A program made the position numbers and the translations under genes. From the NCBI GenBank assembly GCA_963665235.2, contig CAXXLX010000001.1:2496001-2560000 (forward strand): a DNA stretch of 64,000 bases, read 5' to 3'. Below the pieces are notes generated by a model. It was not told the origin of the DNA, ran no database searches, and saw nothing but the letters and a program-made list of their open reading frames with translations. This document shows, piece by piece, positions 3,737 through 34,696 of the stretch; within the stretch, counting starts at the first letter, position 1; every line of letters begins with the position of its first letter. This stretch comes from Candidatus Poribacteria bacterium. Its GTDB lineage: Bacteria > Poribacteria > WGA-4E > WGA-3G.

Positions 3737-4267
3737 TTAGTCTCCTAAGTACAGGTTGAGGAACAGTTCTGTATCGTCTCCGATGTCCTCACCTTGAACT
3801 GGAGGACTGCTAACGGGTGTCACGACGTTTGATTTCAATGGGTTATCCGCGAGTTGTTCCATGTAAACTCCGAAGTAAAAATCGAGGGTTTCATCGGGTT
3901 GAGGGGCCGGTGAAGCATTGAAAAAGTACAAAAACGCGACGATAAGACAGAGCGTTGAAAAGGCAGTTGCACCGACAGTGAACGGACGAAATATCCACCG
4001 TCTGAAACCTGATAGAATTTGTTTCCGCGCAGTTGCCTCCTTTTCCCGAATCAATGCCAAAACAGCATTCTTCATAGGGGGCGCAGGATGTACAAGTCCA
4101 GCGATTCTCTGGCGGTTCTGCTTAAAATCGGACAGCATATCGGCACACCCCTGGCACTCCCGAAGGTGAGCGTCCACCTTCTGCCGCATTGCCGGGGACA
4201 ATTCATCATCCAGATATGCCGATAACTGTTTCTCAATACGTTGATGTTTCATATTTCTAAACCACAT
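3737..4267 (-). CDS. Zinc-finger anti-sigma factor with TM helix (true start may be 4252)
   Basis: LSAYLDDEL...HLRECQGC (HxxxCxxC) followed by a TM segment. Confidence 0.88.
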   Translation of the reverse strand: MWFRNMKHQRIEKQLSAYLDDELSPAMRQKVDAHLRECQGCADMLSDFKQNRQRIAGLVHPAPPMKNAVLALIREKEATARKQILSGFRRWIFRPFTVGATAFSTLCLIVAFLYFFNASPAPQPDETLDFYFGVYMEQLADNPLKSNVVTPVSSPPVQGEDIGDDTELFLNLYLGD

Positions 4268-4288
4268 TTCATAAAAAATTGGAAAACT

Positions 4289-4906
4289 TTACCAATTGAC
4301 CCGTTTGAGTTCTTCTCTCAACGCTTTTCGGGCTTCATGTAACCGAGATTTGACGCGCCCGAGCGTGCAACCGAGGACTTCCGAAATTTCCGCGTAAGAG
4401 AGCTCCTGTAGCTCCCGTAGGATTAAGATAGTTCTATAGCTCTCCTTGAGTTTCGCAAGGGCTGCATGGACGATTTCTCTGCGCTCAGCACGTAATAGCT
4501 CCTGTTCGGGGGTTACCGTGTAAACTGGCACCCAAGGTTGCGAATCGTCAATCTCCATAGGTTCCGTTTTTCTGCGTTTGCGTTGGTCAATAAGATTGAG
4601 GCATTTATTTTTCGTGATTTGGTAAAGCCAAGTAGAAAATCGGGAGCGGAACTTAAATTGACCGATATTCTCCCAAACAGAGAGAAATACGTCTTGTGCA
4701 ATATCTTCGGCATCTTCGCGATGGCCGAGAAATCCGTAAGCGATGTTGTAAACCCAATGTTGGTACTGAACGACTAACGTTCCCATCGCCGCGGTGTCCC
4801 GCTGCTGGCAGCGCAAAACAAGTTCGCGCTCCTGCTGACTGTCGAAATCTTCTACCTGAGCAATATCCGAATAGGTTTCCATATTAGCAGTAAGGGTAAC
4901 AGACAT
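4289..4906 (-). CDS. ECF RNA polymerase sigma factor (RpoE/SigW-like)
   Basis: DAEDIAQDVF, FSTWLYQI, LSYAEISEVLGCTLGRVKSRLHEAR. Confidence 0.93.
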   Translation of the reverse strand: MSVTLTANMETYSDIAQVEDFDSQQERELVLRCQQRDTAAMGTLVVQYQHWVYNIAYGFLGHREDAEDIAQDVFLSVWENIGQFKFRSRFSTWLYQITKNKCLNLIDQRKRRKTEPMEIDDSQPWVPVYTVTPEQELLRAERREIVHAALAKLKESYRTILILRELQELSYAEISEVLGCTLGRVKSRLHEARKALREELKRVNW

Positions 4907-5010
4907 TTTTTCCTCCTGAGGTCCTGTGCATTTCGCTAGAAGGCATCCCTATCAGATGCTATGTATGAGATAGATACCAGAAATTTTGTTTTGTTTCGTT
5001 TTCAATTCTA

Positions 5011-8336: not shown

Positions 8337-8613
8337 TACCATTTCTAATTGAAAATGTCTCTTTCTTGTAGCATAAACTTCCAGTTTGTGCTTTCTTGTA
8401 GCATAAACTTCCAGTTTGTGCTTTCTTGTAGCATAAACTTCCAGTTTGTGCTTTCTTGTAGCATAAACTTCCAGTTTGTGCTTTCTTGTAGCATAAACTT
8501 CCAGTTTGTGCTTTCTTGTAGTCTTGCTTTCTTGTAGCATAAACTTCCGTTTCTTCCGTTCTCCGTTTCATTTCTAACAACCGGTAATGATAGAATAATT
8601 AATAAAAATGGTA
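8337..8613. mobile_element. MITE-like family A, copy 1, with an internal tandem GTAG-REP array (five full 30-bp units plus partials)
   Basis: Ends TACCATTT/AAATGGTA; unit GTAGCATAAACTTCCAGTTTGTGCT is a hairpin; the same flanks recur at 16578 and 34360. Confidence 0.75.
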
Positions 8614-16577: not shown

Positions 16578-16693
16578 TACCATTTTTATTAATTACTCTA
16601 TCATTACCGGTTGTTAGAAATGAAACGGAGAACGGAAGACCCAAACTGGAAGTTTATGCTACAAGAAAGAGACATTTTCAATTAGAAATGGTA
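16578..16693. mobile_element. MITE-like family A, copy 2 (inverted, single REP unit)
   Basis: Reverse complement of the 8337-8613 flanks with one internal unit. Confidence 0.75.
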
Positions 16694-31516: not shown

Positions 31517-32800
31517 TTACAGCGCAAACGCCTTCTCATCGTCCAATTCCATCAGTGCGAACCAGGTGTTGATATCCGTGCGGTCCGGCGCGATTTTATT
31601 GCGTATTTTCGCCATCAGCGCCTTATGCTGTTCAGTCTCCGGCCCCAGGTGCGTCATCGTTTCATTAAACGCTTTGATGGCTGCTTCATGCTTTGGGTAA
31701 TGTGTTTTCAACCAGGCTTCAACGTCAGCATCGGTGGGCAATGTCTTCAGGGCTTCAGCGAACTCCGCAGCGGGTATACCGAGAAAGGAGAGTATCGCTC
31801 GGTCTATACCTGACCCCTCACCGTAAAAATATTCGCCTAACGTGCCGGCATTAAATGCTCTCCCCTTATCAATCAACCGGGCAATTTGAACCGTGCCGTA
31901 AACGTCGGTATTGTAAGGGCTTCGTGGGGCGTGACGTTGAAGGTCAACGATGCCGAAACTTAGCTCATCGTCCAGGTCTTGGAGTGCGACCCATGTCGTG
32001 ATGTCTGTGCGGTCAGGTGCGATGTCGTTTCGGCGTGCTTCAAACCGTTCCTGTGTCGTTTCATCGGGCCCACGATTTACCAGAGTGTGATTGAACGTGT
32101 CAATCTCTTCCTGTGATTTATCACAAGTTTCCTGCACCCATTCACCAAGCTCAATGTCATTTGGGTTGTTAACCGCGGCTTCCTGAAAATCATCGGCGGC
32201 GGTTCCGAGGAATGTTAGGATGCGGACATCCTGTCCTGAGGTATCGCCATATTTATAGTCGCCGATTTTCCCTGTGCGGTCCGCGCGAGCTTTATCTGCC
32301 ATGCGTGCAACACCACAGATGCCAGCAACATCCCTTGCCCGCGCACTGCGCGGCGGCCGGACGGTCAAATTGAGCTGCCAAAAACATCCCCAATCGTCTA
32401 ATTCTATAGACTGAATCACTGTCTTAATATCGGTGCGCTCGGGTGCGAACCGTTCGAGCCGTTCTTTCAACAGCTGTTGATGTTTTTTGTCGGTCGGCAA
32501 TTTCTCTAATTCCGTTCGATTAAATGTTGCGATTTCTTCAGCGGTCTTTTTGCCGTTTTCAAGCATCCAGTTGCTGAGTGTGGCATCGTCGTATTCGCCA
32601 GCGGCCTCCGCGAATGCGTCCGATGAAATATTCAAAAACGCTAAAATACGCAGATCTAATCCGGAATCGGCTCCGTAAACAAAATCGCCGAGGGTTTCGG
32701 CATTATGTGCGCGAGCTTTGTCTGTCATGCGTGCTGCCCCGACAATCCCTGCAACACCTAAGTTTGAGGGACGACGTGGGGGTTGACGTGTCAAATCCAT
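31517..32800 (-). CDS. Triple-repeat DUF5069-like protein
   Basis: Three repeats of PR.P...ARM.DKARA...G.Y.YG..SG.D..IL.FLG...ELDD. Confidence 0.8.
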   Translation of the reverse strand: MDLTRQPPRRPSNLGVAGIVGAARMTDKARAHNAETLGDFVYGADSGLDLRILAFLNISSDAFAEAAGEYDDATLSNWMLENGKKTAEEIATFNRTELEKLPTDKKHQQLLKERLERFAPERTDIKTVIQSIELDDWGCFWQLNLTVRPPRSARARDVAGICGVARMADKARADRTGKIGDYKYGDTSGQDVRILTFLGTAADDFQEAAVNNPNDIELGEWVQETCDKSQEEIDTFNHTLVNRGPDETTQERFEARRNDIAPDRTDITTWVALQDLDDELSFGIVDLQRHAPRSPYNTDVYGTVQIARLIDKGRAFNAGTLGEYFYGEGSGIDRAILSFLGIPAAEFAEALKTLPTDADVEAWLKTHYPKHEAAIKAFNETMTHLGPETEQHKALMAKIRNKIAPDRTDINTWFALMELDDEKAFAL

Positions 32801-32959: not shown

Positions 32960-34033
32960 TTAGAAGGCATATAGTGCTGTTAACGAGACCAACGTCCCTA
33001 ACTCAAACGCATCGCTTTCCTCATACTTACCGTCTAAGAAAGCGGTGCTGTCATCATAAAGTGTCTCTTGTTGGATTGGCAGCATCAACGTAATAGATAG
33101 CGGCACGTTGTAAGGTGTCGCAAGGGACACGCCTATCGATGCCAGACTAAACCGGAGACCTGTATTGATGTCCTTCTCTCCTGCCCAATAGGCGTAGGAT
33201 TGATACAGTCCAAGATAACTCGTCTGTAGCGAAAGCCAATTGTTAACGCGATAATTCAACCCGGCGGTATAGGTAACATCCCATGAACCGCGATAGGTTT
33301 TACTGTTTTCATAGAATGGGAACTTCCCGCCAACACTTATGTTGCCAACTAACCCGCCGTAGATTGGAAGGCTGTAGTGCAAGTTAGCAGTAGGGTTAAA
33401 TGTCCCCGTACCGAATTGGATATGGAGATGTTCTAGGCCCATATCCCCGAGTTTCCATGGGTCTTCTTCGGTTTTACCGAACGGAATTGTTGTTCCCAAT
33501 TTTGCGGTTAGCTGGTCATGTTTTCGGAAAATTCCTTCTCTGTTATATGTCAACAAGAGGTTCATATCAGAGATACCGCGATAGGTTTCGTTTCGGTGGT
33601 GAATGTCCTGATTTCGTATTATCGCGTTTCTCTGTTCCGAGGTATCGATTGAATCGACCGGTTCAATGCTGGCATCTTGGCTTTTTATTTCATACGGCAG
33701 TGCTGCTTCTAATCGCCACTGTTCATTCAGTTGATATTTTAAGCCGATGTCGAACCGAAGAACGTTCAATTTGACCTTATGTCGGTGGACCGGTACCTCT
33801 ATTACGTTTCCGGTGGGAGAGATTCCCTTACTTTCGAGGTGGCCCCCTTCCGCGTTGAACCCGCGTGTATTAATAGACGCTTCAAATTTCTTTTGCTCTG
33901 AAGTTAAACTAACTTCACTTCCCCCACCTTGTGGGATTGTGGGGTTGCTTCACGCGCCTCAGCTCTCCTGTGCGAAGCCGAGGGGAATGAAGATGAATTG
34001 AACGGCAAAAATTGCCGCAAGTAGGATTTTCAT
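32960..34033 (-). CDS. Putative outer-membrane beta-barrel transporter, 357 aa, with two in-frame TGA codons (candidate UxxU selenoprotein)
   Basis: GGAGG RBS and ATG 34033; MKILLAAIFAVQFIFIPLGFAQES*GA*SNPTIP... in frame with ORF 32960-33769; IQFGTGTF; terminal YAF. Confidence 0.75.
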
Positions 34034-34359
34034 GATATTTTACCTCCATTATTGTAGTTCCCCGTGTTGTTTTTCTTCGGAAACGATATTCTCTATTTCT
34101 TCTGCGATTTCTTGGACTTAGGAGAACGGTGTCCAGTATTCGGGCAAACAACCCGCTCCTAGAATTTTGCACAAAACACAGTCATGGTTTCCATTATTAT
34201 AATCCGAGTTGCTACCTATAAGTTTTTAGACATGGACACTCCGTCTTTAGGCAAAAAATGATTATAATTCGCCAATATCTTGTGCCGTAAACTTCCAGTT
34301 TGCGACCTTATGGCACAAACTAGGAAGTTTGTGCTACTATGTGGCAACTTAGGTTATTA

Positions 34360-34539
34360 TACCATTTCTAATTGAAAATGTCTCTTTATTGTAGCATAAA
34401 CTTCCAGTTTGTGCTCTTTATTGTAGCATAAACTTCCAGTTTGTGCTCTTTATTGTAGCATAAACTTCCAGTTTGTGTCTTCCGTTCTCCGTTTGATTTC
34501 TAACAACCGGTAATGATAGAATAATTAATAAAAATGGTA
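34360..34539. mobile_element. MITE-like family A, copy 3 (three 32-bp REP units)
   Basis: Same ends and body as 8337-8613; an inverted REP pair lies just left (about 34282-34337). Confidence 0.75.
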
Positions 34540-34696
34540 TTATATCAAAAACAGTAGTATTTTGTCAAAAAAACACATAACTTTAGATTTTATGAAGTTC
34601 TTATAGGTTCAGGTTTTTATAGAAATTTCGTAACTGCAACTTACCCTTCTTCCGAAACACCTTTGCGAAAATAAAATAGGTTGGAACACCACAACC

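Follow-up and report, generated by a model that had tools for sequence, protein, structure and literature searches.

A predicted double-selenocysteine outer-membrane barrel family of Candidatus Poribacteria

A barrel gene that runs through two UGA codons

The stretch of DNA analysed here, called the window, is a 64,000-nt piece of a Candidatus Poribacteria genome (assembly GCA_963665235.2, contig CAXXLX010000001.1, positions 2,496,001 to 2,560,000), and coordinates are those of the window unless stated otherwise. Its minus strand carries a gene whose reading frame crosses two TGA codons and which had been singled out, from the letters alone, as a candidate outer-membrane barrel with two selenocysteines (Sec, U) in a UxxU motif. 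With both TGAs read as Sec, the complete selenoprotein precursor coding sequence occupies 32960..34033 and encodes 357 aa followed by TAA, an extent given by its translation and by in-frame full-length matches in relatives. This read-through product, with TGA translated as U, is referred to as P0001.

A GGAGG ribosome-binding site, read from the sequence, lies at 34043..34047 (minus strand), 9 nt 5′ of the ATG at 34033-34031. The ATG opens a signal peptide, M1-A21 (33971..34033, minus strand), with 21 hydrophobic codons and a G-F-A-Q stretch kept in relatives. From the small residues at -3/-1, cleavage is predicted after G-F-A, which would give a mature N-terminus of Q-E-S-U-G-A-U-S-N-P. The first in-frame TGA, for Sec25 (33959..33961, minus strand), is followed by GGC GCG and then by the second, for Sec28 (33950..33952, minus strand), after which the protein reads S-N-P-T-I-P-Q-G-G. 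Past the second TGA the frame stays open into the listed open reading frame (ORF) 32960-33769, which starts with TTG at 33769, and it ends in ...LYAF-TAA. The beta-barrel domain, residues ~50-357 (32963..33886, minus strand), was placed by an AlphaFold2 (AF2) model, its alignment to 4RL8 and invariant columns, and it ends in ...YAF. The original prediction had listed the ribosome-binding site, the ATG at 34033, the signal peptide, both TGA positions, the open run into ORF 32960-33769 and the terminal YAF, and all are present in the sequence. Both TGAs and other portions of the gene are covered by contigs from three RNA-library runs, although such contigs are no proof of transcription, strand or translation.

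Judged by its sequence, the protein is a bona fide outer-membrane barrel with two Sec residues, conserved in many relatives and belonging to a family not described before.

Both UGA codons are conserved and align with cysteine

In all 71 related loci extracted, the signal peptide is followed in frame by [U/C]-x-x-U-[S/T]-N-P, a recurrence well beyond what chance would give. Among 69 unique relatives, codon 28 is TGA in every one and codon 25 is TGA in 51, TGT in 11 and TGC in 7. The codons around the TGAs vary in these 69 sequences mainly at third positions: the Gly codon between the TGAs is GGC (23), GGT (22), GGG (5) or GGA (2), the Ala codon is GCG (32), GCT (17), GCC (15) or GCA (4), and the Gln codon is CAA (58) or CAG (10). 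Third-position variation before, between and after the TGAs indicates that a translated frame passes through both of them. The worry that the TGAs might be assembly errors can be dismissed, because 140 of the 176 genomes searched in the phylum have them too.

More distant relatives were collected with a full HMMER scan of 1.84 billion representative proteins, which returned 387 at E<=0.001. Sixteen distant representatives covering the N-terminus were fetched; 14 carry CxxC-x-NP (as CPAC, CAAC, CAGC, CPGC or CPVC) and the remaining two show W, at positions that are TGA in the DNA of closely related sequences. The original prediction had proposed to check what homologs carry at codons 25 and 28: in DNA, it is TGA or Cys, never Trp or Arg. 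Across Sec and Cys forms, the invariant columns include C25, C28, N30, P31, H65 and H85, together with H145, H146, R147, E149, G153, D156, H202 and H204. As read from these alignments, both UGAs are conserved sense codons aligned with the Cys of homologs, and the predicted proteins are an uncharacterised family that combines an N-terminal CxxC/UxxU-x-NP motif with an invariant set of His, Arg, Glu and Asp residues.

Two database proteins, P0183 and P0164, carry W where relatives have TGA (WGAW and CSLW). Their contigs were evidently translated with a table in which TGA is Trp, and the W is a gene-calling artefact.

The host genome can decode selenocysteine

The host genome (5.31 Mb in 4 contigs, 92.6% complete) contains selA, selB, selC and selD, the machinery whose absence would have spoken against the original prediction. 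Its tRNA-Sec reaches 78.1 bits (cutoff 47 bits) and is called tRNA-SeC (tca) by ARAGORN; the next Rfam tRNA-Sec matches are Leu/Ser tRNAs below the cutoff. The adjoining selB (357 bits), selA (601 bits) and selD (359 bits) all exceed curated cutoffs, and selD itself has one in-frame TGA. By its predicted gene content, the host genome is able to decode Sec.

TGA ends 12 of the 48 long ORFs in the window, which indicates the standard genetic code. A reassignment of TGA to Trp or Gly was considered and ruled out, given that TGA acts as an ordinary stop and that homologs have Cys at the positions in question. Among the 48 tRNAs called by ARAGORN, the anticodon tca occurs once, in tRNA-SeC, and there is a single tRNA-Cys (gca), of an ordinary 75 nt. 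Also among the ARAGORN calls is an 80-nt tRNA without an assigned identity and with an irregular anticodon loop (‘gt’), at C1:1423749-1423828 of the same genome.

Of the four HMA domains in the host genome, three have UxxC: three HMA proteins carry an in-frame TGA within the metal-binding motif, which reads GMT-U-GGC or GMT-U-GSC. Outside the window, the genome carries two small tandem secreted HMA selenoproteins (L181, 840-1217 and 1048-1707, plus strand) and a 541-aa protein with a C-terminal HMA domain and an in-frame TGA (L183, 1480-3105, minus strand). The TGA-bearing HMA proteins of the host match CopZ/MerP-type NCBIfam models only below cutoffs.

Two hairpins lie downstream of the second UGA

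Hairpin 1 (33922..33944, minus strand) has one 3′ arm, GTGGGG (33927-33922), and two alternative 5′ arms: CCCCAC at 33944-33939, which leaves an 11-nt loop (register A), and TCCCAC at 33936-33931, which leaves an AAG loop (register B). The original prediction had placed the TCCCAC-AAG-GTGGGG form 13 nt past the second TGA and had noted the alternative CCCCAC arm, and its coordinates are correct. Register A is the minimum-energy fold of the window sequence. Hairpin 1 starts 6-14 nt after the second UGA, its 5′ arms lie 8-9 nt apart, and in 53 aligned sequences both registers pair in 86.2% of cells. When the 11 nt past the A-site codon are masked, folding yields a hairpin at the usual distance from the first UGA and, in 68 of 71 sequences, another hairpin 12-19 nt after the second.

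Hairpin 2 (33899..33917, minus strand), which the original prediction had missed, is TGAAGTTA-GTT-TAACTTCA, an 8-bp stem with a GUU triloop that starts at +33 after the second TGA. In the same 53 sequences 91.7% of its cells are paired, with changes on both sides in 5 of 8 pairs. One covarying pair, which joins the third position of a Val codon to that of a Leu codon, is C-G in 33 sequences, U-A in 16, G-U in 4 and unpaired in none. RNAalifold found hairpin 2 independently, and its covariation score of 0.273 falls to 0.054-0.151 in slid-partner controls. RNAalifold also proposed a helix between UGA1-GGN-GCN and AGC-AAY-CCC, which shows no compensatory change and was given no weight.

The loops separate the two hairpins further. 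Among 75 unique Sec-form sequences, six of them non-poribacterial (four Acidobacteriota-titled), both hairpins could be parsed in 71, and a G stands at loop position 1 or 2 of hairpin 2 in 71/71 and of hairpin 1 in 22/71. The loops of hairpin 2 include GUU (55), GGU (4) and CGGGUC (3), among others. In folding comparisons, the two-hairpin layout appeared in 10 of 10 Sec forms, with z scores of -1.2 to -3.7, and ten Cys forms had no shared layout (z +0.5 to -2.5). The consensus for bacterial selenocysteine insertion sequence (SECIS) elements has a G at apical-loop position 1 or 2, according to the available part of PMC13582414.

Hairpins of other host selenoprotein genes offer a comparison from the same genome. 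Those of selD and of the HMA genes start 6-16 nt after their UGA and have G-first loops, with AGCUCC-GGG-GGAGCU at +12 for selD and loops of AGUGC or GGA for the HMA genes; hairpin 2 lies farther from its UGA. Hairpin 1, in contrast, stands at the customary distance from the second UGA. The usual UGA-to-loop range in bSECISearch is reportedly 16-37 nt.

The assignment in which hairpin 2 is the SelB site and hairpin 1 a structured spacer has, in our judgement, an even chance of being right, and the assignment of hairpin 1 alone as the SelB site is a tenable minority view. The original prediction had suggested that two hairpin registers might be used for the two UGAs. The registers themselves stand, in that both pair across relatives; a role for them in serving two UGAs is compatible with the data and goes no further, and hairpin 2 bears the better SECIS signature.

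The protein is modelled as a 12-stranded barrel

An AF2 model built with 42 aligned Sec forms reached a pLDDT of 82.9 and a pTM of 0.79 and shows about twelve long strands. VIA-align superposes it on 4RL8 (Pput2725) with Z 25.9 and a root-mean-square deviation of 2.6 Å over 251 of 268 residues. In the combined Foldseek and VIA-align ranking, 4RL8 and FapF (Z ~24) come first, followed by autotransporter barrels at Z 18-20, with FadL much lower; in the ESM-Atlas, a Cys-form homolog has PF13557 clusters as its neighbours. The pLDDT and the Z of the 4RL8 alignment back the earlier call of an outer-membrane barrel. As modelled, the protein is a 12-stranded barrel of the COG4313/FapF fold, preceded by a short segment that begins Q-E-S-Sec-Gly-Ala-Sec-Ser-Asn-Pro.

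COG4313/PF13557 channels such as Pput2725 share with the family the 12-stranded barrel, a similar size and a segment before strand 1. What sets the UxxU family apart from them is its Cys/Sec pair, its invariant set of histidines and the metal genes in its neighbourhoods; COG4313 proteins lack CxxC/UxxU and are linked to hydrophobic substrates. The barrel lumen of Pput2725 is filled by its N-terminal 14 residues (PMC4493636, in the part available). By analogy with this COG4313 channel, the flexible N-terminal segment of the UxxU family may lie in the lumen near the conserved histidines.

Annotation truncates the protein, and no Pfam or NCBIfam model covers it

Automated annotation cuts the protein at its first TGA. 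The best 120 of 521 predicted proteins related to it are 261-327 aa long and cover 75-91% of the read-through product; names among these 120 are ‘hypothetical protein [Candidatus Poribacteria bacterium]’ and, from JGI, ‘long-subunit fatty acid transport protein’. Pfam gave P0001 sub-threshold matches only (OMP_b-brl, 23.8 against 28.7 bits; DUF6850, 22.5 against 27). P0001 has no match to PF13557 at E<=0.01, and its homologs P0224 and P0260 reach 19.3 and 18.3 bits against a 22-bit cutoff. In NCBIfam release 20, P0001 matches no family at E<=0.01, NF041027 and NF049945 included. Ten Cys-form homologs were run against the same library: nine have no match, and P0134 matches only HMA-type models, below cutoff and through a fused HMA domain. 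A profile search of the PDB with a 16-row alignment returned nothing at E<0.7.

Table 1 of a 2026 review (PMC13188914) names 119 prokaryotic selenoprotein families. Its outer-membrane entries are the GSU2204/MtrB-PioB family and an FCYXU TonB-dependent receptor, and its UxxU entries are a Prx-like protein, an HMA-type metal-binding protein and an FmdB-family protein; no entry in that table matches a barrel UxxU protein. The two outer-membrane entries (NF041027 and NF049945) resemble the UxxU barrel in being outer-membrane beta-barrels with predicted Sec, as tabulated there; unlike it, they have one Sec each, much larger barrels and other motifs. We found no account of the family in the literature, where it may yet appear in a supplementary listing as a ‘hypothetical protein’.

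The prediction would add an abundant and deeply conserved selenoprotein family, widespread in a phylum of sponge symbionts and present in Acidobacteriota as well. Its members would count among very few outer-membrane selenoproteins and among few bacterial proteins with a Sec pair two codons apart.

Distribution and relationships of the Sec and Cys forms

In a six-frame search, 54 of 61 related genomes proved to contain the gene; the few matches without TGA are fragments that span only the C-terminal part of the query. Extended to relatives titled Candidatus Poribacteria across the phylum, the search found it in 140 of 176 genomes, in 1-3 copies each. By family, it is present in 111 of 111 genomes (f1), 11 of 11 (f2), 10 of 29 (f3) and 7 of 7 (f4), and in none of 17 genomes from seven further families. 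Among the matches listed, all 150 from the phylum contain 1-3 in-frame TGAs, with 95 further matches beyond these.

A scan of one genome per species with a 7-row alignment gave 80 loci, and a motif filter retained 78 motif instances in 77 of them: 19 CxxC, 36 CxxU and 23 UxxU. Every CxxC instance (19/19) comes from a lineage titled Bacteroidota and reads CPACSNP, and the UxxU form also occurs in Acidobacteriota-titled loci (L119, L124, L127 and L133). In a quick maximum-likelihood tree of 99 rows, with long branches flagged and a root set by midpoint only, all 77 Sec rows fall on one side of a branch (SH-aLRT 94). Within the Sec rows of this tree, CxxU requires at least three changes, and the second Sec is never lost.

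Individual loci show some irregularities. The poribacterial locus L118 holds two same-strand copies 2.5 kb apart, at ~5018 and 7589 (plus strand), with C-A-A-U and U-G-A-U. The ortholog L044 in genome G024 has a third in-frame TGA (...MMR-U-FDAQ) at a position that is Trp in all others; it could reflect a mutation of TGG to TGA, an error in sequencing or the decay of this copy. A CPAU paralog, L071 in genome G030, stops short at 322 aa; its C-terminus is unrelated, it has more in-frame TGAs, and it is possibly a decaying copy.

Cys forms are encoded among mercury and copper genes

Neighbourhoods were surveyed with Pfam for 113 of 168 ORFs around 12 Bacteroidota loci, 2 Acidobacteriota loci and 1 other locus. 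Directly 5′ of the Cys-form barrel, the 12 Bacteroidota loci carry a gene with HMA and thioredoxin domains in ten cases and with thioredoxin only in one; the gene is absent in one. The HMA+thioredoxin gene often overlaps the start codon of the barrel and encodes a signal peptide, GM[TS]CxxC and WC[GAK]PC. Nine of the 12 Bacteroidota loci also have MerT, frequently as a fusion with HMA. Seven have an ArsR-type regulator and six a CsoR-like repressor; three encode a MerA-like pyridine-nucleotide disulfide reductase, two a P-type ATPase and one a multicopper oxidase. MerP-like genes also adjoin Cys-form barrels. The homolog P0134 has an HMA domain of its own at the C-terminus (43.3 bits; cutoff 24.8 bits). 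An HMA-thioredoxin neighbour also stands beside the UxxU form of the Acidobacteriota locus L124.

The conserved, secreted HMA-thioredoxin fusion lies at ~4200-5000 in loci L093-L113 and at 4219-4992 in L124 (all plus strand). It appears to be a periplasmic partner, not described before, that is encoded in mer/cop operons.

In poribacterial neighbourhoods, where 37 of 94 ORFs were tested, the CPAU paralog precedes a YHS-like protein (29.5 against 30.3 bits) or a YtkA-like protein together with two OEP genes. The UxxU copies at L115 and L120 are located after a CDF transporter, and one poribacterial UxxU group has an aldo-keto reductase on one side and a family-5 ABC binding protein on the other.

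A proposed role in thiophilic-metal handling and its alternatives

The best explanation as a whole, a UxxU selenoprotein barrel of the outer membrane with an inferred thiophilic-metal role, is one that we consider likely. Its functional part, thiophilic-metal (Hg/Cu) handling at the outer membrane, draws on context, mainly that of the Cys forms, and we hold it with less assurance, as somewhat more probable than not. The Sec pair would bind a soft metal, Hg(II) or Cu(I), in the way that CxxC does in MerP/HMA proteins. The barrel would receive thiophilic metal ions at the outer membrane, or move them across it, and pass them on to periplasmic HMA proteins, three of which are predicted selenoproteins in the host genome (GMT-U-G-G/S-C). 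The original prediction had spoken of a metal-binding transporter; the Cys-form neighbourhoods and the single HMA fusion point indirectly the same way.

Known systems give this proposal its bearings. The MerP-MerT relay uses paired Cys sites to pass Hg(II) inward, and the Cys forms of the UxxU family are encoded beside MerT, MerP-like and MerA-like genes. The available part of a review of the mer system (PMC8261052) draws outer-membrane passage as diffusion and names no outer-membrane component. HMA-fold selenoproteins (UxxU proteins of NF041115, MerT-type C/SxxU proteins and the MerT/CopZ fusion NF045683, as far as PMC13188914 was available) share with the family an x-x-spaced chalcogen pair, Cys homologs and Hg/Cu contexts; they are either small domains of ferredoxin-like fold or helical proteins of the inner membrane, and P0001 matches none of their models, whereas the UxxU barrel is predicted to lie in the outer membrane. 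Should the proposal hold, the Cys forms would point to an unrecognised outer-membrane partner and a periplasmic HMA-thioredoxin protein in Hg/Cu resistance operons of Bacteroidota.

Several observations weigh against the proposal or parts of it. The window copy is flanked by a TRAP transporter with LarA_N and by a triple-DUF5069 protein, with no metal genes, and the second copy in the genome adjoins an aldo-keto reductase. The host genome has no MerT, its MerA match stays below cutoff (382 against 454 bits), and its best match to the HMA-thioredoxin protein reaches 26 bits through the thioredoxin part only, which leaves it without an ortholog. Co-encoding with mer genes, found for Cys-form homologs, was not found for the window gene or its genome, and an Hg(II) role here is a prediction that departs from the MerP-MerT relay in this respect. 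The N-terminal segment is modelled with low confidence (residues 15-48 at pLDDT <60 in the Sec form, 16-45 at <50 in the Cys form), so that its placement inside the lumen is an analogy only. At the RNA level, a search around the UGAs at E<=10 gave no Rfam family, two rows attributable to chance apart, and hairpin 2 starts 27-41 nt after the second UGA (mode +33). The arms of hairpin 1 are partly forced by the Pro/Gly codons of the conserved N-P-x-I-P-x-G-G peptide, which makes them weaker evidence for that hairpin.

The lack of metal genes around the window copy fits a different function, in which the UxxU selenoprotein is real, its Sec pair is a redox centre for diselenide or selenol exchange and the barrel transports, for example, a hydrophobic compound; the thioredoxin-domain protein beside the Cys forms would then be the reductant. 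The available part of PMC13188914 interprets CxxC, CxxU and UxxC as redox motifs in the majority of predicted bacterial selenoproteins; the partner protein conserved upstream of the Cys forms has the thioredoxin active site WCGPC, and the closest structure, Pput2725, has been proposed for uptake of hydrophobic molecules (PMC4493636, again in part). That thioredoxin partner, however, also bears an HMA metal-binding domain; MerT, MerP-like, MerA-like, CsoR-like, P-type ATPase and multicopper oxidase genes surround the Cys forms; one homolog is fused to HMA, and the invariant histidine set suits metal coordination. The two roles are moreover compatible, as thioredoxin may merely keep the pair reduced, and we consider a purely redox function, although it is the chief competitor, unlikely.

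The remaining alternatives concern what the UGAs encode. One or both might be read as Cys, by a tRNA-ReC-type tRNA with a SECIS, or by near-cognate read-through, which would give CxxC or CxxU in vivo. The available text of PMC13582414 supplies a precedent, reporting tRNA-ReC-like tRNAs as enriched in genomes with UXXU hydrogenases, whose UGAs may be Cys. Such decoding is very improbable here: ARAGORN called no second tca tRNA among the 48, in a genome whose 92.6% completeness would allow one to be missing. It strains belief further that the TGAs are true stops, with a 24-codon leader ORF before a barrel ORF that starts from TTG 33769, or with the whole a pseudogene. Gene callers do yield products of this kind, as the lengths of 261-327 aa among the best 120 of 521 show, but the truncated ORF would lack the signal peptide and the first beta-strand, the 60 codons from the second TGA to the TTG are conserved as protein, third-position variation runs across both TGAs, and homologs have Cys at both positions.

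For the double-Sec barrel, one arrangement of the RNA might allow a single hairpin to act on both UGAs by means of a sliding spacer. While the first UGA occupies the A site, hairpin 1 would form from its 3′ arm and the upstream 5′ arm. Three codons on, the ribosome would pull in the upstream arm, leaving the 3′ arm to re-pair with the other 5′ arm, which lies 8-9 nt downstream. The unpaired distance between the A site and hairpin 2 would in this way stay constant at ~17-19 nt for both UGAs. UXXU Group 4 [NiFeSe] hydrogenases also have two UGAs two codons apart, and in the available part of PMC13582414 a single downstream SECIS with a loop G at position 1 or 2 is suggested to serve both. Those proteins are cytoplasmic Ni-binding enzymes, whereas the UxxU barrel gene has two conserved hairpins, with the G-loop hairpin unusually far downstream. 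The full proposal, that hairpin 2 is the one SelB hairpin for both UGAs by way of a collapsible spacer and that the barrel is the first outer-membrane part of a Se-based Hg/Cu relay with UxxC HMA selenoproteins, is a speculative one that we think rather improbable. The locus would in any case be a natural test case, rich in sequence variants, for a coding-region SECIS serving two adjacent UGAs.

Other features of the window

The next gene downstream (31517-32800, minus strand) encodes 427 aa with three DUF5069 stretches and has no NCBIfam match. On the 5′ side of the selenoprotein gene lies a 660-bp gap, in which reading TGA as U revealed no hidden partner gene. A consensus scan placed a candidate promoter-like site within this gap (34539..34568, minus strand), TTGACA-18 nt-TATAAT with a TG, which scores 12/12 and is a pattern match only. 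The gap also holds 3.2 repeats of a 32-nt unit (34382-34481), and further sites of this repeat are at 8371-8510, 16640-16659 and 34285-34304. The 20-nt core of this repeat occurs 10 times in the window with up to 3 mismatches, including five occurrences at 30-nt spacing near 8400, and its 825 exact copies in the genome indicate a dispersed intergenic repeat family.

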